Shown: positions 43,346-52,286 of the stretch, in pieces | Layout: every line of letters begins with the position of its first letter | Position numbering within the stretch: the first letter of the stretch is position 1 | Sequence record: MT129654.1 | Strand: one strand, 5' to 3' | Origin: Escherichia phage MN04 | Length of the DNA: 64,000 nucleotides | Translations under genes and position numbers: made by a program | Notes under the pieces: generated by a model | The model's database searches: none | Told to the model about the DNA's origin: nothing | The model's input: only the letters and a program-made list of their open reading frames with translations

Positions 43346-43350
43346 GTTAT

Positions 43351-43378
43351 GGGACTCTTCGGAGTCCCATTTTTGTTT
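43351..43378 (+). terminator. rho-independent terminator
   Basis: GGGACTC-TTCG-GAGTCCC hairpin + ATTTTTGTTT. Confidence 0.65.
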
Positions 43379-43876: not shown

Positions 43877-44238
43877 ACTACATCAACTTCGAACGTAAAT
43901 ATGTTTCTAACGGTATCGCTGGTTCTTCTGAAGTTATTTGTCTGTGGAAACACAACAACGGCACAGTGTGCGAAATCGAACAGTGCATGACTCCTAACTA
44001 CGTTTATATGCGCTTTGAAAATGGTATCACGGTTTCAATCACTATGGAAGGTTCTACTTTTAAAATCGCTTTGGATGATGATTTCCGTCAACGTGATTTA
44101 GGTACCCATCCTTGCTGGAACGGTGATAATCGTAAGCTTCTGGTTAAAACCTGGATTCGTCACATCCTGAGCAACCGTGCTAAACCTGAACACCTGGAAG
44201 CAATCTTTGATGTAGTTCTGAATGAATTTGATATCTAA
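43873..44238 (+). CDS. hypothetical protein (121 aa)
   Basis: ATG after identical 40-nt leader cassette, copy 2. Confidence 0.4.
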   Translation: MNYINFERKYVSNGIAGSSEVICLWKHNNGTVCEIEQCMTPNYVYMRFENGITVSITMEGSTFKIALDDDFRQRDLGTHPCWNGDNRKLLVKTWIRHILSNRAKPEHLEAIFDVVLNEFDI

Positions 44239-44279
44239 TCTTAAAAATGGAGGCTTCTGCCTCCTTTGAGGAAAATATT

Positions 44280-44567
44280 ATGTTTATGACCACTTATTTC
44301 GATACTCGTAAAAATTTCTGTGAAGTTGTCTTCTCTAAGGCAGGTAAAGATGTTCCTGCTGACAAACAGCCTACTCGTGAATCCATTAAGGCCTATGCTG
44401 ATGTGGTTTGTCCAGTAGAATTCCGTACAGTCAATGGTCGTGACACCCTAGCAATCACTAAGCTCAACCGCGATATTAACATCGACCCAAGTGTCGCCCG
44501 CGAAGTCAATACTTCTGACATCTACGGCGGTAATGTTAAATCACATGGATTCCAGATGAGGTTCTAA
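44280..44567 (+). CDS. hypothetical protein (95 aa)
   Basis: ATG after TTTGAGGAAAATATT SD; track start 44247 lies inside an upstream hairpin. Confidence 0.35.
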   Translation: MFMTTYFDTRKNFCEVVFSKAGKDVPADKQPTRESIKAYADVVCPVEFRTVNGRDTLAITKLNRDINIDPSVAREVNTSDIYGGNVKSHGFQMRF

Positions 44568-44761
44568 TGCAACTATTCTTATCACAAACCGTTCAGTTAA
44601 AAGGTGTAGGTATTCCTGGTATGATTTCAAAGGTTTTACCTGCTTTTAAATTGGGTAATGCTACTATTAAAGAAGCCTACACGGTCCTATGGGTCGATGG
44701 CACTGAAGACGTTCGCATGGGTTCTGAATTGTCTGTAATCAAATGTTTGAAGCGAGGATAA
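44567..44761 (+). CDS. hypothetical protein (64 aa)
   Basis: TAATG overlap. Confidence 0.3.
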   Translation: MQLFLSQTVQLKGVGIPGMISKVLPAFKLGNATIKEAYTVLWVDGTEDVRMGSELSVIKCLKRG

Positions 44762-44762
44762 T

Positions 44763-44978
44763 ATGGTCAAGAAACTGATTCAGAAATTGTTAGGTACGGA
44801 AATGGTTGAAGTGACTTATCGTGTGACTGATGTTTCTCCTCATACGGCGGACCATTTAGAACCTTATATCATGACAATTAAAATGCCTAAACATGACGGT
44901 GGTTTATCCATTGAAGACCGACTGCCGGGTTATGGTTATTGGGCTGATGTTGAAATTATAAGTGTCAAAGATGTCTGA
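44763..44978 (+). CDS. hypothetical protein (71 aa)
   Basis: ATG-initiated ORF. Confidence 0.3.
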   Translation: MVKKLIQKLLGTEMVEVTYRVTDVSPHTADHLEPYIMTIKMPKHDGGLSIEDRLPGYGYWADVEIISVKDV

Positions 44979-45429
44979 GTTAGAAATTAGAAGTAACTTT
45001 CCGTGGCCATCATGTGCATTAAGTAACTTTGCTAAATGGCCTTTCGTTATGGATGGTATCCAATTTGGTGGACTTGAAGGATTCCTCCAAGGATGTAAGG
45101 TGAAAAATGTTGAACAACAAAGACGTATATTTAGGATGTCCGGGTTGGACGCGCAAAAAGCTGGACGAGCTTATGCTAGGGCTCAGGACCGTGGCACGTT
45201 GTTCTGGCTTGGAACCCCGTTTTCAAGATATTCCGAAGCGTGGAAAGAGCTTTACGAAAGTGCGTATTTTGAAGCAGCGCTCCAGAACAAAGGATTCCGA
45301 GAAGCTTTACAAGCCACTAAAGGTAAGGTTTTAAAGCATTCAATGGCAAGCCACCTCAAAGAATGTGATACAATACTAACTGAAAAAGAGTTTATCGACA
45401 TCCTAAACAAATTGAGAGATTTATTATGA
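44971..45429 (+). CDS. NADAR / YbiA-like domain protein (putative ADP-ribose or N-glycoside hydrolase)
   Basis: LSNFAKWPFVMDGIQFGGLEGFLQGCK resembles the YbiA/NADAR signature (FSNFAAWPI..DG......E..FQA.K); track start 44962 is GTG. Confidence 0.55.
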   Translation: MSELEIRSNFPWPSCALSNFAKWPFVMDGIQFGGLEGFLQGCKVKNVEQQRRIFRMSGLDAQKAGRAYARAQDRGTLFWLGTPFSRYSEAWKELYESAYFEAALQNKGFREALQATKGKVLKHSMASHLKECDTILTEKEFIDILNKLRDLL

Positions 45430-46064
45430 AACCAGTTATCTTAACAGATATCGATGGAGTATGTTTAAGTTGGCAGTCCGGCTTGCCTTATTTCGCACAG
45501 AAATATAATTTGCCTTTAGAACATATTTTGAATATGATTCAGGACGAACGTTTCTTATCTCCAGGTGAACTGTTTAATTGTGACGACGAATTAGGCGCAC
45601 GTTTAATTGAGAAATATAATCAGTCGGATTTTATTCGTTATCTGTCCCCTTACATGGACGCATTAAAACACATCAACAAGCTCAAAAAAGACTTCGATTT
45701 TGTAGCCGTGACTGCGCTAGGCGACTCAATTGATGCCCTGCTGAATAGACAATTCAATTTGAATGCTTTGTTCCCTGGCGCATTCAAGGAGATTCTGATG
45801 TGTGGTCATTCAGAATCAAAAGAAGACCTGTTCATAAGAGCTAAAAATACGTACGGCAAACGCATTAAGTTTTATGTTGACGATTTGGCTCACCACTGTG
45901 ATGCTGCATCTAATATTCTCATGGATATCCAAGTTTATTGGTTAGCCCGTGGTGAACGCGACTTTAAACCTAATTTAGCCGTAAAGGTTAATTCATGGGA
46001 CGATATCGCAGCAATCGAATCCCTTCGTAATAATGCAGCCGTTGAATGGATTGCACGAGGTTAA
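45426..46064 (+). CDS. HAD-superfamily hydrolase (putative nucleotidase/phosphatase)
   Basis: Motif I ILTDIDGV, motif II VAVTA, C-terminal K...YVDD; ATGA overlap with NADAR stop. Confidence 0.5.
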   Translation: MKPVILTDIDGVCLSWQSGLPYFAQKYNLPLEHILNMIQDERFLSPGELFNCDDELGARLIEKYNQSDFIRYLSPYMDALKHINKLKKDFDFVAVTALGDSIDALLNRQFNLNALFPGAFKEILMCGHSESKEDLFIRAKNTYGKRIKFYVDDLAHHCDAASNILMDIQVYWLARGERDFKPNLAVKVNSWDDIAAIESLRNNAAVEWIARG

Positions 46065-46065
46065 T

Positions 46066-46329
46066 ATGTTTGTTGTTCATACTATTACTGATGGAATCCC
46101 TAAATCCCATGATTATGGAAACTTTAGACAATTCCTTCGATTGAATCCTGTATATTTCCAAGCCAAAGATGAAGATATCTTTATCCAATGTGTTCGGCGT
46201 GGATTTATGTATGTTACTGAATATGATATTAAAGATAAGCGTATTATATCGTATCACAAAACTTTAAATGAGCTTTTAGATGAAGTAGCTTATAATAGAA
46301 GTACACAAACTGTAAGGACGGTAAAATGA
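46066..46329 (+). CDS. hypothetical protein (87 aa)
   Basis: First ATG of track ORF 46033. Confidence 0.35.
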   Translation: MFVVHTITDGIPKSHDYGNFRQFLRLNPVYFQAKDEDIFIQCVRRGFMYVTEYDIKDKRIISYHKTLNELLDEVAYNRSTQTVRTVK

Positions 46330-47849
46330 TTTTAGATATTTTAAACGAAATTGCTTCTATTGATTCTACTAAAGCTAAAGAAGCTATTATTGCTCGTGAA
46401 AAGGATAACGAGCTTCTGAAACGTGTATATCGTATGGCTTATACCCGTCGTTTGAACTATGGTATTAAAAAGTGGCCAGAACCTGGATTTACGTCTCAAT
46501 CCTTTGGTATGATTACACTTGAAGACCTTCTTGATTTCGCTGAGTTCACATTAGCCACCCGTAAGATTACGGGTAATGCTGCTATTGAAGAGCTTGCTCA
46601 AATTATTGCTGATGCTAAGGGTCCTGACGCTGAGGTATTACGTCGCGTAATGATGCGTGACCTTGAATGTGGTGCATCGATTTCTATTGCTAACAAGGTT
46701 TGGAAAGGTTTAATCCCTGAACAACCTCAAATGTTGGCTAGTTCTTATGATGAAGATTTGATTAAGAAAAATATTAAATGGCCTGCGTTCGCCCAATTAA
46801 AAGCTGACGGCGCCCGTTGTTTTGCTGAAGTTCGTAACGATGGCGTAACATTCCTTACTCGTGGTGGTAATGAATACCAAGGGCTTAATCTTTTGGCGGC
46901 TGAATTAATGGCCATGACCGAAGAAGCTCGACAGCGCCATCCTAATGGTGTTATGATTGATGGCGAATTAGTTTACCACACTCCTAAAGTAGAACCTAAA
47001 GCATCTAATGATTTGTTTAGTATGTTTGATGAGGAACTTCCTGAATTAAGTAAAGCCAAGGAATTCCAAACCGTAGCCGATCGTTCTACTTCAAACGGGT
47101 TGGCTAACAAGGCTCTTCAAGGAACTATTACTCCAACCGAAGCAGCAGGTATGGTGTTACAGGCGTGGGATTATGTCCCATTGGATGTCGTATATTCCGA
47201 AGGTAAAATTAAAGGCGATAAGTATGATGTACGCTTTGCAGCCTTAGAACTTATGGTTGCTCATAATGTCGTATTGCATGGTACAACGCGTGTTGAAGCT
47301 ATCGAAAACCAATGGGTTAATAATCTTGACGAAGCTAAAGTCGTTTATAAGAAATATGTCGACCAAGGCCTGGAAGGTATTATCCTTAAGAACATGGACT
47401 CCTACTGGGAAAACCGCCGTTCTAAGAATCTTATCAAGTTCAAAGAAGTAATCGATATCGCTTTAGAAGTGGTAGGTTATTATGAACACTCGAAGGACCC
47501 AAACAAACTTGGTGGTGTCGAGCTAGTATCACGGTGTCGTCGAATTACATCTGACTGTGGTTCAGGCTTTAAAGATACTACCCATAAGAAAGATAAATCA
47601 GGTAAAAAGGTATTGATTCCATTAGAAGACCGTCCTGATTTAGACCGTGAACTTCTTATGAAACAAGCCCGTGAAGGTAAATTGATTGGACGTATTGCTG
47701 ACTGTGAATGTAATGGTTGGGTTCATTCTAAAGGACGTACTGATACTGTAGGTATTTTCCTTCCAATTATTAAAGGTTGGCGTTTCGATAAAACAGAAGC
47801 TGATACATTTGAAGATGTATTTGGTGATTGGTCTCAAACTGGACTATAA
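46326..47849 (+). CDS. 30: ATP-dependent DNA ligase
   Basis: 507 aa; MILDILNEIASIDSTKAKEAII start; adenylation motif AQLKADGARC; EGIILKN; matches T4 ligase. Confidence 0.9.
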   Translation: MILDILNEIASIDSTKAKEAIIAREKDNELLKRVYRMAYTRRLNYGIKKWPEPGFTSQSFGMITLEDLLDFAEFTLATRKITGNAAIEELAQIIADAKGPDAEVLRRVMMRDLECGASISIANKVWKGLIPEQPQMLASSYDEDLIKKNIKWPAFAQLKADGARCFAEVRNDGVTFLTRGGNEYQGLNLLAAELMAMTEEARQRHPNGVMIDGELVYHTPKVEPKASNDLFSMFDEELPELSKAKEFQTVADRSTSNGLANKALQGTITPTEAAGMVLQAWDYVPLDVVYSEGKIKGDKYDVRFAALELMVAHNVVLHGTTRVEAIENQWVNNLDEAKVVYKKYVDQGLEGIILKNMDSYWENRRSKNLIKFKEVIDIALEVVGYYEHSKDPNKLGGVELVSRCRRITSDCGSGFKDTTHKKDKSGKKVLIPLEDRPDLDRELLMKQAREGKLIGRIADCECNGWVHSKGRTDTVGIFLPIIKGWRFDKTEADTFEDVFGDWSQTGL

Positions 47850-48071: not shown

Positions 48072-50159
48072 ATGACCGAACAATTAAATGAAGTGTTTGA
48101 GTCCGAAGGCACCCTGCCTACTGTAAACTTAAACCCAAAACTTAAAGTACCCCAGATTTGGAAGATTGGCGACGCCGAATCCCAATTAGTTGCTCGTATG
48201 GTATCTTATGCCTCTGAAGGCGATGCTATTAAACAGGTTAAATTAGGTGATAAATATGCCCACGTTATTTTGATGAGTTTATCAGCTAAAGGTACTCCAG
48301 CCGAACTTAAAGGTGGATTAGGCCCTACTCCTATTGATGCTATTAATACCATTTTCGACGTAGTATTCGAACAAGTTAAAAAGCTTCGTATGGATGCTGT
48401 GATGTTCCGTTTTCCAACCAAGAAAATGAAAGGACAAGGACCTATTGTCCAACGGATTATCCAACGTTTGGTAGCACAGAAAACCGGTGGACGTTTTAAA
48501 GTAGTTCCAGCCATGTACCAATTTACCGGTAAACATACTTATATCCTAGTAGTTCGTAAACAAGCTGATATCGAAGATATCAAAGGTATGCCTGGAATTA
48601 ATGCCGAATTATATACTAAGGTAGATTCTGATGTTGGTGAAGTTTATATTTCTAAAAAAGAAGGCGCTCAGGTTACTAAAGAAACCGCTATTGCCGGCAG
48701 TATTGCTAAAGTTGAAGAACGTCGCACTGATAAAATGGTTATAACCAAGACTAAGATTTCTCGTCGTGCGATTGCGGCAAGCCAGTCATTAGAAGCAGAC
48801 CGTAATGAAGGTGAATTATTTCAGAAATATGAACAAACTGCCAATGAGTTCAGTGCGCCTGCTACGGCGGAATTAATTCCACAAGCAGCCGAAGTTGAAT
48901 TATCATTATCATCCGAAACAGCTAAGGATAAGCTGGCTACGGCTATTGATTTTAAAATTTATAATACTATGGATGATTCATTTAAATTTGCGGATGAAGT
49001 TTCTTACGGTGATAAAATTAACTCTTCTTTAGAAAAATTTGTCAAAAAAATTAAAAATGAAAAAACCACGTCAGTTAAAGCTTTAGCCGCCTTTGTTGAA
49101 GCTGCTAATGAAATCGCAGAATCTATTAAAAGTGATTGGTTTGAAGATTATAGAAAAGACAATTTCCATTTGGAAAAAGAGATATTGAATGAAAACAGTG
49201 AAAGAGTATGGAAACAACGTAAGTCTTCATTCTTGTCTAAGATAATGTATACATACGCTATAGAATCAACTAGAGAAATTCTTAATATAACAACATCTCG
49301 AGACCCTAAACAATATACACTTGCAGAAAAACGAGCTATCAGAGAATACGCCTCTTCAGCTTATATTGATATTAACAATGTCCTTCTTGGCCGTTATAAA
49401 CCGGGCTTTTATGAAGTTTTGGACGAAAGCGAAGTTAAACGTGCTATTGATGGAATGGATTCTGCCTTTAAAAATGGTGACCGTTTACCTGAAGGAATAA
49501 TGGTTTATAGAGCACAATCTTTGCGCGCGCCTATCTACGAAGCATTAGTTAAAAATAAGGTATTCTATTTTAGAAACTATGTTTCAACCTCATTGGCTCC
49601 AATCATTTTTGGTGGCTTTAAAGAGAATGCGGCTATTGGTCTTGCTTCCGATGATGTTCGAAAAGAATTAAACATTGATAATAATGACGAAGGCGTTACC
49701 ATCTCTGCTAGTCAAGTGCGTACACATATGTATGCGCCGGATCAAATCCGTGTTGATGTTGGCTGGGCTATTAGTGGCGCTCATAAGGTTAACGTGATTT
49801 ATCCTGGCCAATTAAGCATGCATGCCAACGAAAAGGAAATAATTTTACCACGCGGGCTACTTGTAAAAATAGATAAAATCGTGGATGCATCAGCCAATAC
49901 TGGTTCTGGGGCGGTTTCTAACAATAAATTTATTCAAGCTGAAGTTATGACATCAGATGAGCTTCAAGAATCTGTAGTGTATGATGGTGACGTACTAATG
50001 GAAACCGGTGAGTTGGTCGTATACCAAGATGACTTCGATACTTCCGAAAGCCCTGTATCTTTTGATTCATTTGTTAAATCTACACGGTTTGACGTACTGC
50101 CTCTTTTGGCTTCATGCATAGACCTCTATGGCATACCAGAAAAATTCATCCAAGGGTAA
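48072..50159 (+). CDS. alt: Alt-like ADP-ribosyltransferase, copy 1
   Basis: 695 aa; locus between gene 30 and gene 54 as T4 alt; C-terminal R/S-x-S/E-x-E signature: VYRAQSL, YVSTSL, EKEIILPRG. Confidence 0.75.
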   Translation: MTEQLNEVFESEGTLPTVNLNPKLKVPQIWKIGDAESQLVARMVSYASEGDAIKQVKLGDKYAHVILMSLSAKGTPAELKGGLGPTPIDAINTIFDVVFEQVKKLRMDAVMFRFPTKKMKGQGPIVQRIIQRLVAQKTGGRFKVVPAMYQFTGKHTYILVVRKQADIEDIKGMPGINAELYTKVDSDVGEVYISKKEGAQVTKETAIAGSIAKVEERRTDKMVITKTKISRRAIAASQSLEADRNEGELFQKYEQTANEFSAPATAELIPQAAEVELSLSSETAKDKLATAIDFKIYNTMDDSFKFADEVSYGDKINSSLEKFVKKIKNEKTTSVKALAAFVEAANEIAESIKSDWFEDYRKDNFHLEKEILNENSERVWKQRKSSFLSKIMYTYAIESTREILNITTSRDPKQYTLAEKRAIREYASSAYIDINNVLLGRYKPGFYEVLDESEVKRAIDGMDSAFKNGDRLPEGIMVYRAQSLRAPIYEALVKNKVFYFRNYVSTSLAPIIFGGFKENAAIGLASDDVRKELNIDNNDEGVTISASQVRTHMYAPDQIRVDVGWAISGAHKVNVIYPGQLSMHANEKEIILPRGLLVKIDKIVDASANTGSGAVSNNKFIQAEVMTSDELQESVVYDGDVLMETGELVVYQDDFDTSESPVSFDSFVKSTRFDVLPLLASCIDLYGIPEKFIQG

Positions 50160-50162
50160 ATA

Positions 50163-52286
50163 ATGGAAAATTTAAACGAAGTTTTTGATAGTGATTCCGC
50201 TAAAAACTATCCAGTAACAAATCTTAAGCCGGGCTCCGGTATCCCACAGATTTTCTCTATCCAAGCACCAGGTAACGATAACCTGGTTGCTCGTATGGTA
50301 TCTTATGCGTCTCAAGGAGACGCTATTAAAATGGTTAAGCCAGGCGACAAATATGTCCATGTTATTTTAATGAGTTTGTCGAGCAAGGGTGCTCCAGCCG
50401 AACTCAAAGGTGGTCTTGGTTCCGACCCACTTGGTGCATTGAATACTATTTTTGATACGATATACGAACAAGTAAATAAACTTAAAATGGATGCGGTTTT
50501 GTTCCGTTTCCCTACCAAGAAAATGAAAGGTAAGGGCCCTACTGTTCAGCGTGTATTAGCTCGTTTGGCGATGGCACGTACCGGTGGTAAGTTTAAAGTT
50601 GTCGATGATATGTTCCAGTTTAGTGGTAAACATACATACGTTCTTTTAGCACGTCGTGGCACTAATATCGAAGATATCAAGGGTATGCCTGAAATTGATG
50701 CGGACCTTTATACCAAGGTTGAGTCTAAAGTCGGTGAAGTTTATGTTTCTAAGAAAACCGGCCAGGCCGTAAGTAAGGTCGAAGCCGTAGCGGCATCTAT
50801 TGCACAGGTTGAAGAGAAACGTACCGATAAGGCTGTTATCTCTCGTACTAAAATTTCCCGTCGTATGGCTGCAGCAGCGCAGTATTCTACTGCCGAACCT
50901 GAAACTTTATCACCTAAAGAATTGCAGGTTTATAACGAGTTTGAAGCTTCTGTCCCTGTTCACTCGGCCGAAGGCCCTGAGAACGAAGGTATTGAGCAGA
51001 TTAGTCAGAACTTTAAAAAAGGTGCTATTACTAAAATGCGTCAGGCCTCTCAGTTTAAATCTAAGAGTGAGGACCTTGCCAACTTTAGATACACCATTGC
51101 TCTCACGCACGCTTTAATGACTGATAGTAAATTTAAACTAAATTATGCTAATAGAGATAAACAAGGGTTTGAAATTTACTCTAATAATATGGCATTTTTT
51201 AATACGGAAGTCGATAGACTTTTAAGTGGCCTTTCTCAAATCAATACTACCAATAGTCTGGATATTATTAAGAGAATTGTTAATAACCTGAGTGCCCGTT
51301 TTCAGGGGTCTCCTTCAGAGAAAGCATCCCGAATTGCTTTCGCTATGGAAGCCGTTTATAAACTGATTAACGATTCTATTAGCGATGCATATGCTTATTC
51401 AGGCGAGCTCATTAAACCTAAGGGCTTGACCAAAGACGAAAGTAATGCCATTATTGAATATTGTGCGGCTGAATATGCTCCTATGAACTTATTCCTTTTA
51501 GGTAAACCTGAATCCGAAAACAATACAACAGCTATTAAATTGATTAAGGATTTAGACTCAGCATTTACCAAGGGTATTAAACTTCCTAAGGGTACTATTT
51601 TGTATCGTGGTCAGGATTTACCATACAAAATTCTGCGCCATAATATTGATAACAAAACATTTTACTTTAAGAACTTTGTGTCCGCTTCATTAAAGCCTAA
51701 TATCTTTGGCGAATTTGGTAAAAATTATATGGCCCTCGACAACCAAGCAGTTTTTGTTGGCGATGAAGGTTCTTTATCCTCCGCTGATGAGTTGTTTAAA
51801 TTAGCCAGTGGTAGTTCATCTGATGTAGGCGAAGTTGATGATGAAGAGGTAGAATGGGAAGAAGACGAGTTCGGTAATCCAATTGCACCTGAAGGCCCTG
51901 CAGACAGGATTGCTGAAATCGGTATGGTTATTCGAGGTGCTGAAGCAGTTAAAGTTATCGCTCCTGGTGACCTTACAGAATATTCCGAAGAAGCAGAAAT
52001 TATCCTTCCGCGAGGATTATTGTTGAAGGTTGATAAAGTAGCGGCTTTTGCTATGAATGATAGAGTATCTCACAAATACCTTATGGAAGCTACAGTGACA
52101 TCTCCTTCAGAACTCAGTGGGTCCGTTTACGATGGTGACCATCTGATGGAAACCGGTGAAGTTAAATTGATGAATGGGTTTAAAGAATTCCTAGTTTCAG
52201 AATCTGTTTCAGAAAGTAATGAGGCTATGGAAATCCTTGCTGCATCTTTGGACATCTCTTCTTTACCAAATAAATTCAAAATGTAG
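50163..52286 (+). CDS. Alt-like ADP-ribosyltransferase, copy 2 (divergent paralog)
   Basis: 707 aa; N-terminal region clearly homologous to copy 1; ART signature LYRGQDL, FVSASL, EAEIILPRG; central region unrelated. Confidence 0.7.
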   Translation: MENLNEVFDSDSAKNYPVTNLKPGSGIPQIFSIQAPGNDNLVARMVSYASQGDAIKMVKPGDKYVHVILMSLSSKGAPAELKGGLGSDPLGALNTIFDTIYEQVNKLKMDAVLFRFPTKKMKGKGPTVQRVLARLAMARTGGKFKVVDDMFQFSGKHTYVLLARRGTNIEDIKGMPEIDADLYTKVESKVGEVYVSKKTGQAVSKVEAVAASIAQVEEKRTDKAVISRTKISRRMAAAAQYSTAEPETLSPKELQVYNEFEASVPVHSAEGPENEGIEQISQNFKKGAITKMRQASQFKSKSEDLANFRYTIALTHALMTDSKFKLNYANRDKQGFEIYSNNMAFFNTEVDRLLSGLSQINTTNSLDIIKRIVNNLSARFQGSPSEKASRIAFAMEAVYKLINDSISDAYAYSGELIKPKGLTKDESNAIIEYCAAEYAPMNLFLLGKPESENNTTAIKLIKDLDSAFTKGIKLPKGTILYRGQDLPYKILRHNIDNKTFYFKNFVSASLKPNIFGEFGKNYMALDNQAVFVGDEGSLSSADELFKLASGSSSDVGEVDDEEVEWEEDEFGNPIAPEGPADRIAEIGMVIRGAEAVKVIAPGDLTEYSEEAEIILPRGLLLKVDKVAAFAMNDRVSHKYLMEATVTSPSELSGSVYDGDHLMETGEVKLMNGFKEFLVSESVSESNEAMEILAASLDISSLPNKFKM

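Follow-up and report, generated by a model that had tools for sequence, protein, structure and literature searches.

An AdfN-type NADAR gene and a predicted HAD phosphatase gene upstream of ligase in Escherichia phage MN04

Two overlapping open reading frames of Escherichia phage MN04 (MT129654.1) appear to encode a NADAR-type protein and a HAD hydrolase, which raises the question of whether the pair works jointly against host defence or consists of unrelated neighbours. The window analyzed here is the whole 64,000-nucleotide stretch. The reading that we prefer, at a probability of roughly 0.85, is that these genes are adfN and an independent HAD phosphatase gene, brought together by an inherited block and not by joint work against DarTG1.

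Gene order and the adfN-30.2 junction

The window is 99% identical in DNA sequence to JS98 and NC-G, in which genes 30.3, 30.2, 30.1 and 30 are annotated. By this comparison, the source phage is a JS98-like Dhakavirus (T4-type), and the ORF pair is T4 genes 30.3 and 30.2. The relevant features are as follows.

44763 to 44978, plus strand: gene 30.4 (context), 71 aa; phrog_2042, E = 6.3e-35, and JS98 annotation
44971 to 45429, plus strand: adfN (gene 30.3), 152-aa NADAR-fold protein; Pfam PF08010, E = 2.1e-65, with published function for the T4 orthologue
45426 to 45429, plus strand: ATGA junction, the 30.2 start over the adfN stop, read from the sequence
45426 to 46064, plus strand: gene 30.2, 212-aa HAD subfamily I protein (helical C1 cap), predicted Mg-dependent phosphatase

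The adfN gene runs from an ATG at 44971, overlapped by 8 nt by the end of 30.4 with its stop codon, to a TGA at 45427-45429. Gene 30.2 runs from an ATG at 45426 to a TAA at 46062-46064. The 4-nt ATGA overlap of the pair, which the preliminary description had pointed out, is also present in T4 and JS98; RB69 is without it, and adfN is truncated there. The description was equally accurate in placing the pair upstream of ligase (46326-47849) and a few kb from Alt-like genes, which are two tandem paralogues (48072-50159 and 50163-52286) at a distance of ∼2.6 kb from 30.3. Its term “variable block” does not suit the region. The block 31, rIII, 30.9 to 30.1, 30, alt is syntenic across T4, JS98, RB69 and MN04, and on that comparison the part upstream of ligase is a conserved accessory block rather than a hypervariable one.

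Every junction in the chain 30.6-30.5-30.4-30.3-30.2-30.1-30 is either an overlap of 1-8 nt or a gap of 1-2 nt. Given that the whole chain is joined in this way, the ATGA overlap is no proof of coupling and was set aside as a sign of a functional link. A scan for promoters and terminators detected nothing convincing at the boundary of 30.3 with 30.2. The adjacency of the two genes would follow from their common membership of a tightly packed, co-transcribed and vertically inherited accessory block upstream of ligase.

The 30.3 product and its relation to known NADAR proteins

The first ORF had been described as NADAR-type, and the proposed checks by profile search and structure prediction bore this out. 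The product matched PF08010 (Phage_30_3) with 219.1 bits, far above the cut-off of 36 (E = 2.1e-65), over residues 12-150. Residues 17-43 read LSNFAKWPFVMDGIQFGGLEGFLQGCK, and the signature SNF...E..[FY].Q..K is common to AdfN and Escherichia coli YbiA. The proteins from MN04 and T4 are both 152 aa long and align at 85% identity, gap-free and in the same numbering, with 23 substitutions that cluster at residues 55-65 and 125-152. Some homologues match PF08010 and PF08719 alike. Three residues were invariant in 36 homologues and are encoded in MN04 by the following catalytic codons.

45076 to 45078, plus strand: E36
45097 to 45099, plus strand: K43
45337 to 45339, plus strand: H123

In a single-sequence search of the PDB, AdfN gave a marginal match to YbiA (E = 0.77), and its match to NCBIfam TIGR02464 (riboflavin intermediates N-glycosidase) reached 14 bits (E = 0.036) against a cut-off of 73.7. 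Marginal single-sequence matches of this kind, obtained for AdfN and gp30.2 from these two sources, made profile and fold searches necessary. With an AdfN profile, YbiA was the sole match among PDB sequences. The AF2 model of AdfN (pLDDT 94.8) represents a full-length protein with a C-terminal helix at residues 138-151, and its Foldseek matches in the PDB were NADAR structures only: YbiA (2B3W, E = 3.4e-5, TM 0.67), PnNADAR-ADPr (8BAU, E = 6.5e-3) and the Geobacter lovleyi NADAR (8BAT, E = 0.11), with no other PDB entry at E < 1.

Within the NADAR fold, the last-strand residue distinguishes the branches, being His in phage proteins, Glu in YbiA and Asp in DarT-linked proteins (PMC11125620). 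H123 directly follows a short strand (residues 120-122) in the AdfN model and, from this position, would correspond to the last-strand His of phage NADARs. The MN04 30.3 product is a member of the phage NADAR / gp30.3 (AdfN) subfamily. DarG1, the NADAR antitoxin of DarTG1 (G. lovleyi protein, 8BAT), resembles it in fold, in the catalytic Glu and Lys and in the removal of ADP-ribose from DNA guanine, an activity known for AdfN from T4. The two differ in the last strand (Asp in DarG1, His in MN04 AdfN) and in setting, the MN04 gene being an orphan without a DarT partner; their similarity is very low, at 16-19% in fold alignments.

Membership of the YbiA branch itself would make gp30.3 an N-glycosidase of riboflavin-pathway intermediates and not a DNA repair enzyme. 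The TIGR02464 match and the rank of YbiA as best structural match are in keeping with such a role, but that TIGR02464 score is far under the cut-off. Moreover, YbiA belongs to another subfamily with a different physiological role, and phage NADARs form their own, with His for the YbiA Glu (PMC11125620), a His that the MN04 protein has. Since the T4 orthologue also removes ADP-ribose from DNA and the phage needs it on hosts with DarTG1, a riboflavin-type role is extremely improbable.

The anti-DarTG1 function of gp30.3 is already known from T4. The protein was identified as AdfN, a DNA ADP-ribosyl-guanine glycohydrolase through which T-even phages escape DarTG1 (Johannesman et al., Nat Commun 2025, PMC11825919), and its in vitro activity was also reported by Cihlova et al. 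(Toxins 2024, PMC11125620). Purified T4 AdfN alone cleared ADP-ribose from DNA in dot blots, protection of phage from DarTG1 was seen in plaque assays, and the mutants E36A and K43A and a truncation of the last helix established that these residues and the helix are required (PMC11825919). RB69, whose adfN of 414 nt encodes a 137-aa product without the C-terminal helix, is consequently DarTG1-sensitive. In T4 transposon sequencing under DarTG1 (HIDEN-SEQ Data S6), 30.3 had a log2 fold change of -7.25 (adjusted p = 0); under DarTG2 it was unaffected. The reversal of DarT-type guanine ADP-ribosylation that the preliminary description advanced as a counter-defence role is therefore the published function of the T4 orthologue.

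The T4 protein corresponds to that of MN04 in length, in E36, K43 and H123, in the C-terminal helix, in its position between 30.4 and 30.2 and in the ATGA junction. It differs in being encoded by a Tequatrovirus gene; the MN04 allele is from a Dhakavirus, and we infer its activity and anti-DarTG1 role from the gap-free identity to T4 AdfN, the catalytic residues and the predicted fold. On this basis, the host DarT1 toxin would ADP-ribosylate guanines of phage DNA, and AdfN would hydrolyse the ADP-ribose-guanine bond so that the base is restored, ADP-ribose is released and replication proceeds. Two other T-even proteins act against DarT toxins and have folds and mechanisms unrelated to those of AdfN. 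T4 AdfM, the Tk.4 macrodomain directed against DarTG2, targets thymine-linked ADP-ribose, and T4 AdfA neutralises DarT1 by proposed toxin binding, thus blocking the toxin and not repairing DNA.

Control of ADP-ribosylation inflicted by the phage itself had also been suggested, and gp30.3 would then regulate or reverse modification by the Alt paralogues or by ModA/ModB. The short distance to the tandem Alt genes would suit such a role, as would the involvement of NAD-derived ADP-ribose in both activities. T4 Alt, ModA and ModB modify proteins, and annotation records RNA polymerase as an Alt target. By contrast, NADARs target guanine-linked ADP-ribose in nucleic acid (PMC11825919, PMC11125620). 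The proximity to Alt reflects conserved T4 synteny, and in T4, 30.3 has no fitness effect and is dispensable unless DarTG1 is present. Neither gp30.3 nor gp30.2 was found to be linked to control of phage-inflicted ADP-ribosylation, and we consider this role of gp30.3 very unlikely.

The first gene is to be labelled adfN (anti-DarTG1 NADAR), a label that predicts DarTG1 resistance of this JS98-like phage and is useful for host-range prediction. A further ORF in an alternative frame, 30.3' (45107-45334), is annotated in T4. It is open in MN04 and T4, but JS98, at 99% identity, has it disrupted and more distant homologues lack it; for these reasons it was treated as a chance ORF.

gp30.2 and its relation to the NT5C family

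The HAD motifs attributed to the second ORF were also found as described: residues 5-12 are ILTDIDGV, and residues 148-153 are KFYVDD. The protein matched phrog_420 (E = 2.4e-70), and the four HAD motifs map as follows.

45447 to 45449 and 45453 to 45455, plus strand: motif I (DxDx[TV]), D8 and D10
45711 to 45713, plus strand: motif II (T/S), T96
45819 to 45821, plus strand: motif III (K), K132
45879 to 45884, plus strand: motif IV (DD), D152-D153

Across 37 homologues, D8, D10, G11, K132, D152 and D153 were invariant and T96 was near-invariant (at least 90%). Among 45 distant relatives, D8, D10 and K132 remained invariant and D153 was conserved in at least 90%. In the predicted structure (pLDDT 94.5), strands 1, 2 and 4 of a Rossmann-like HAD core carry the motifs at their ends. 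A helical insert (residues 16-86) forms a cap after strand 1, and a fold search with this model returned HAD structures exclusively. HAD phosphotransferases use an Asp two positions after the nucleophile as acid/base, a residue that dehalogenases are without; in gp30.2 this position is the invariant D10. These features indicate that gp30.2 is a genuine HAD-superfamily phosphatase, by prediction, in which Asp8 would be the nucleophile and Asp10 the acid/base beneath a helical cap.

The NT5C family was the top weak specific sequence match. gp30.2 scored 12.9 bits (E = 0.1) against Pfam NT5C PF06941, below the cut-off of 24.8, and its matches to PDB cdN had E = 0.093 with a profile and E = 0.19 with the single sequence. 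NT5C is also the commonest Pfam family among the remote relatives (23 of the 45), and when a gp30.2 HMM was run over the fetched loci, the best matches after the orthologues were two Pfam-NT5C proteins. The near-invariant W16, an aromatic residue eight positions past the nucleophile, aligns with the aromatic, base-stacking F18 of cdN. The NT5C enzymes (cdN 2JAO/6G2N and mdN 4MUM) have the HAD core, the DxDGV/T/K/DD motifs and the helical C1 cap in common with gp30.2. They differ in that identity is about 15-18%, the gp30.2 cap is longer and the activity of gp30.2 is a prediction. gp30.2 thus appears to be distantly related to the NT5C 5'(3')-deoxyribonucleotidases.

The substrate is most probably a small phosphorylated metabolite. 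Because the family grades into NT5C 5'(3')-deoxyribonucleotidases, a (deoxy)nucleoside monophosphate is the candidate that we tentatively prefer. A non-nucleotide substrate such as a sugar phosphate, phosphoglycolate or pyrophosphate is possible, though we do not favour it: specific sequence matches are led by NT5C throughout, this Pfam family also recurs most often in the remote relatives, and W16 occupies the position of the base-stacking cdN residue. A full-text literature search for gp30.2 gave no results, and nothing relevant was found in the literature on phage deoxyribonucleotidases in anti-defence. PADLOC, the models of which cover defence and not anti-defence, gave no matches for AdfN or gp30.2. 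The annotation of the second gene changes from “hypothetical” to “HAD-family phosphatase, NT5C-like,” and the significance of these assignments extends little beyond annotation.

Linkage of the two genes and the T-even dependence of AdfN

The preliminary description regarded the pair as a functional module. As a two-enzyme system, gp30.2 would dephosphorylate the AdfN product (ADP-ribose or a phospho-ribosyl remnant) or would be the T-even helper. Consistent with this, the genes adjoin with the ATGA junction in T4, JS98 and MN04, are immediate neighbours with no overlap in a T4-like phage of Acinetobacter and lie near one another in KP27, where two small ORFs separate them. Phage records carrying 30.3 and 30.2 are similar in number (1510 and 1447, respectively), but shared descent among the T4-like phages accounts for this co-distribution. 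The type of overlap is generic along the gene chain.

Helper activity has some grounds, in that T4 AdfN is fully effective only in T-even infection and cannot replace DarG1 in uninfected cells (PMC11825919). A phage partner for AdfN is accordingly possible, and RB69, in which ectopic AdfN works, carries 30.2. The T4 transposon data argue against gp30.2 as this partner. In contrast to 30.3, gene 30.2 was neutral under DarTG1 (log2 fold change of -0.12, p = 0.61, 71 TA sites; HIDEN-SEQ Data S6), although this was one pooled assay with one DarTG1 plasmid in rich medium, from which a modest contribution of 30.2 could escape. Gene 30.2 was likewise neutral under DarTG2, and the idea that gp30.2 is the missing T-even cofactor of AdfN was dropped as the leading one. 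Taken with the sufficiency of purified AdfN for clearing ADP-ribose from DNA, the published T4 data suggest that gp30.2 is not needed for DarTG1 protection and do not support the pair as a module.

The distribution of the genes beyond the T-even phages gives a mixed picture. In KVP40-like phages, the gp30.2 orthologue is located by ligase and the NADAR gene elsewhere, so that the two are unlinked. HAD genes are absent from the vicinity of several phage NADARs, and NADAR genes without a nearby gp30.2 were found in the jumbo and other phages examined. Using the gp30.2 HMM, no orthologue was detected within 5 kb around NADAR in KVP40-like, Ralstonia, Erwinia and Vibrio 2.058.O phages, nor in four metagenomic phage contexts. 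In Vibrio phage 2.058.O, the “HAD-like” gene close to NADAR encodes an unrelated HAD protein. A module of the kind described is, on balance, distinctly improbable.

The relocated NADAR gene of the KVP40-like Vibrio phages is followed immediately by a different, canonical NT5C-type HAD gene, an arrangement that also counts in favour of joint function, and one metagenomic phage has a non-orthologous NT5C gene 2.7 kb from NADAR. The KVP40-like recurrence could hint at a real link between NADAR proteins and nucleotidases. That it marks such a partnership, with gp30.2 tied to AdfN under other conditions, perhaps by clearing ADP-ribose-derived phosphates or nucleotide immune signals, is unlikely, and independence of gp30.2 from AdfN is the reading retained here.

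The data point away from gp30.2 as the T-even factor for AdfN; the role could instead fall to gp30.4 or to an essential gene. Gene 30.4 was the second and only other significant gene in T4 under DarTG1 (log2 fold change of -1.79, adjusted p = 0.014), a signal most simply read as polarity on adfN. gp30.4 is T-even-specific, with homologues among the fetched loci in T4 and JS98 only, and RB69 annotates one; it might be a T-even-specific helper of AdfN.

In T4, 30.3 and 30.2 are both non-essential on K-12. Most T4-like phages retain gp30.2, although it proved dispensable under every condition tested.

Genes 30.3 and 30.2 and their setting

Re-reading of the sequence placed both open reading frames exactly where the preliminary description had put them, together with their motifs and the overlap by which they are joined.

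44971-45429, + strand: ORF1 (adfN), ATG at 44971 and TGA at 45427-45429; 152 aa, N-terminus MSELEIRSNF; LSNFAKWPFVMDGIQFGGLEGFLQGCK is residues 17-43 as read from the translation
45426-46064, + strand: ORF2 (gene 30.2), ATG at 45426 and TAA at 46062-46064; 212 aa; ILTDIDGV is residues 5-12 and KFYVDD residues 148-153
45426-45429, + strand: ATGA, uniting the start of ORF2 and the stop of ORF1 in one tetranucleotide

Family matches beyond chance were obtained for both, ORF1 with PF08010 (Phage_30_3; E = 2.1e-65) in Pfam and ORF2 with phrog_420 (E = 2.4e-70). Across window 44000-47000, identity is 99% to JS98 and NC-G, Escherichia phages of the genus Dhakavirus (Tevenvirinae). The annotated order in JS98 is 31, rIII, 30.9, 30.8, 30.7, 30.6, 30.5, 30.4, 30.3, 30.2, 30.1, 30 (ligase), alt.1 and alt; because this annotation names the genes in order, ORF1 corresponds to gene 30.3 and ORF2 to 30.2. 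Gene order in T4 and RB69 is essentially the same, RB69 having no annotated 30.5. A strong terminator-like hairpin (43349-43370, + strand; 9-bp stem with five G-C pairs, followed by a T-run) lies directly 3' of 30.9 and is probably the upstream boundary of the transcription unit for the 30.8-30 chain.

The 30.3 product as AdfN

ORF1 is adfN, a gene that has already been characterised and published. Resistance of T-even phages to DarTG1 was mapped to gene 30.3, which was renamed adfN, for anti-DarT factor NADAR (Johannesman et al., Nat Commun 2025, PMC11825919). In that work, the RB69 allele was found to carry a frameshift that removes the last 15 residues and leaves the phage DarTG1-sensitive; rescue was impaired by E36A, K43A and C-terminal truncation of AdfN, and purified AdfN-T4 removed ADP-ribose from DarT1-modified DNA. 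That T4 gp30.3 is a guanine-ADP-ribose hydrolase was demonstrated independently by Cihlova et al. (2024, PMC11125620), who also take a last-strand histidine as the defining feature of phage NADARs. In the HIDEN-SEQ Tn-seq preprint (10.1101/2025.11.20.689424), 30.3/adfN was conditionally essential only on the DarTG1 host. The central proposal of the preliminary description, a NADAR enzyme of counter-defence against DarT, was thus correct and already in the literature.

The window protein aligns with T4 gp30.3 along its full 152 residues without gaps at 85% identity, and residue numbering therefore transfers. It retains E36, K43 and H123, none of which varies among 36 aligned homologues with identities as low as 35%. 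Profile searching bore out the NADAR assignment, with PF08719 (DUF1768) found alongside PF08010 in some homologues. The AlphaFold model (pLDDT 94.8), in which residues 138-151 form the C-terminal helix, had only three meaningful fold matches in the PDB, all NADAR structures: 2B3W (YbiA), 8BAU (Phytophthora NADAR with ADP-ribose) and 8BAT (Geobacter lovleyi NADAR). The same three were reported for T4 AdfN (PMC11825919). YbiA was the only PDB sequence match to the AdfN family profile. A YbiA-type role in riboflavin metabolism is unlikely, as TIGR02464 scored 14 bits where the cut-off is 73.7 and the last strand carries the histidine typical of phage NADARs. Window AdfN has every defining feature at the level of sequence and structure; from the T4 orthologue, we infer that it would share the enzymatic activity and the phage phenotype.

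A 75-codon frame within adfN (45107-45334, + strand, +1 frame) is the counterpart of 30.3' as annotated in T4. The frame is uninterrupted in the window and T4, is broken in the 99%-identical JS98 (longest ATG-ORF, 53 codons), has no equivalent in KP27 or other distant homologues, and is probably not a real gene.

The 30.2 product as a predicted HAD phosphatase

No Pfam family matched gp30.2 above threshold, the best being NT5C (E = 0.1). Over 194 residues, the window protein shares 75% identity with T4 gp30.2. The JS98-type protein (212 aa) is without the C-terminal tail of T4 gp30.2 (278 aa; T4 locus L002:3475-4311), a Pro/aromatic-rich extension of ∼70-130 residues that is present in many other homologues and highly variable in length and sequence. 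The HAD motifs D8-x-D10-G-V, T96, K132 and D152-D153 are invariant or nearly so in 37 homologues. They lie at the ends of strands 1, 2 and 4 in the structural model (pLDDT 94.5), which has a helical C1 cap inserted at residues 16-86, and the HAD assignment made at first reading is upheld by these four motifs and this fold.

By single sequence and by profile, the top genuine PDB match was cdN, and the near-invariant W16 aligns opposite cdN F18, which we take from cdN/mdN structures to be the base-stacking residue. An exhaustive profile search yielded 1227 cluster representatives at E <= 1e-3; among 45 remote members sampled, Pfam matches were to NT5C in 23 (best E = 4.2e-10), the generic Hydrolase family in 11 and HAD_2 in 7. 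The NT5C 5'(3')-deoxyribonucleotidases are consistently the most specific sequence-level signal. On the motifs, the model and this signal, gp30.2 is predicted with high confidence to be a HAD phosphatase, ordinary but uncharacterised, and with moderate confidence to be an NT5C-like nucleotidase.

Relationship between 30.3 and 30.2

The two genes had been proposed to form a counter-defence module, which T4 genetics contradict, and the evidence speaks against one, at least where DarTG1 is concerned. The published T4 Tn-seq data (HIDEN-SEQ Data S6) weigh most: log2FC under DarTG1 was -7.25 for 30.3 (28 TA sites, adjusted p = 0) compared with -0.12 for 30.2 (71 TA sites, p = 0.61). Purified AdfN is, moreover, active on DNA by itself. 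Both genes were neutral under DarTG2 and non-essential on the K-12 host. The ATGA overlap, read earlier as translational coupling, is uninformative because every junction from 30.6 to ligase is a 1-8-nt overlap or a 1-2-nt gap; RB69 lacks the 30.3/30.2 overlap only because its adfN is truncated. The tallies of phage records for 30.3 and 30.2 are similar (1510 and 1447) and their host genera match, as expected from shared descent within T4-like phages.

AdfN-T4 is fully effective only during T-even infection, and Johannesman et al. suggest a requirement for a further T-even protein (PMC11825919). The T4 Tn-seq data argue against gp30.2 as this putative helper. Besides 30.3, only 30.4 was significant under DarTG1 (log2FC -1.79, adjusted p = 0.014).

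44763-44978, + strand: window orthologue of gene 30.4, small and restricted to T-even phages; 8-nt overlap between its stop and the start of adfN

The simplest explanation of this signal is a polar effect of insertions on adfN, but gp30.4 could be the helper. Among the fetched loci, homologues were found in T4 and JS98 only; RB69 annotates one.

The preliminary description had also pointed to nearby Alt-like ADP-ribosyltransferases.

48072-50159, + strand: Alt-like ADP-ribosyltransferase, 695 aa
50163-52286, + strand: Alt-like ADP-ribosyltransferase, 707 aa

These tandem paralogues (41% identical to each other) do lie 2.6 kb downstream of adfN, and the T4 and RB69 regions examined hold one alt gene. 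Nothing connects AdfN to Alt/Mod protein ADP-ribosylation, and T4 30.3 has no phenotype unless DarTG1 is present.

Beyond the T-evens, the picture of linkage is mixed. The homologues adjoin in an Acinetobacter T4-like phage, and in Klebsiella KP27 two small ORFs lie between them. KVP40-like Vibrio phages retain the gp30.2 orthologue beside ligase (L009:3983-4576) and have the NADAR gene elsewhere, and no gp30.2 relative was found near NADAR in jumbo and several metagenomic phages. One observation speaks for a link: the relocated KVP40-like NADAR gene is followed at once by a different, canonical NT5C-family HAD gene and then a calcineurin-like phosphoesterase gene.

L005:5007-6998 (Vibrio phage VH1_2019): NADAR beside NT5C-family HAD and calcineurin-like phosphoesterase
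L015:784-5021 (one 100-kb metagenomic phage): NADAR with NT5C gene 2.7 kb upstream and metallophosphoesterase directly downstream

Such placement may simply reflect siting among nucleotide-metabolism genes, but it lends some support to a weak NADAR-nucleotidase association, a reading of low probability. A Thg1-family gene lies near NADAR in two other metagenomic contexts (L010:7115-8468 and L014:4566-5411); the two genes are adjacent in one contig and ∼4 kb apart in a 308-kb contig, with a NUDIX hydrolase between them.
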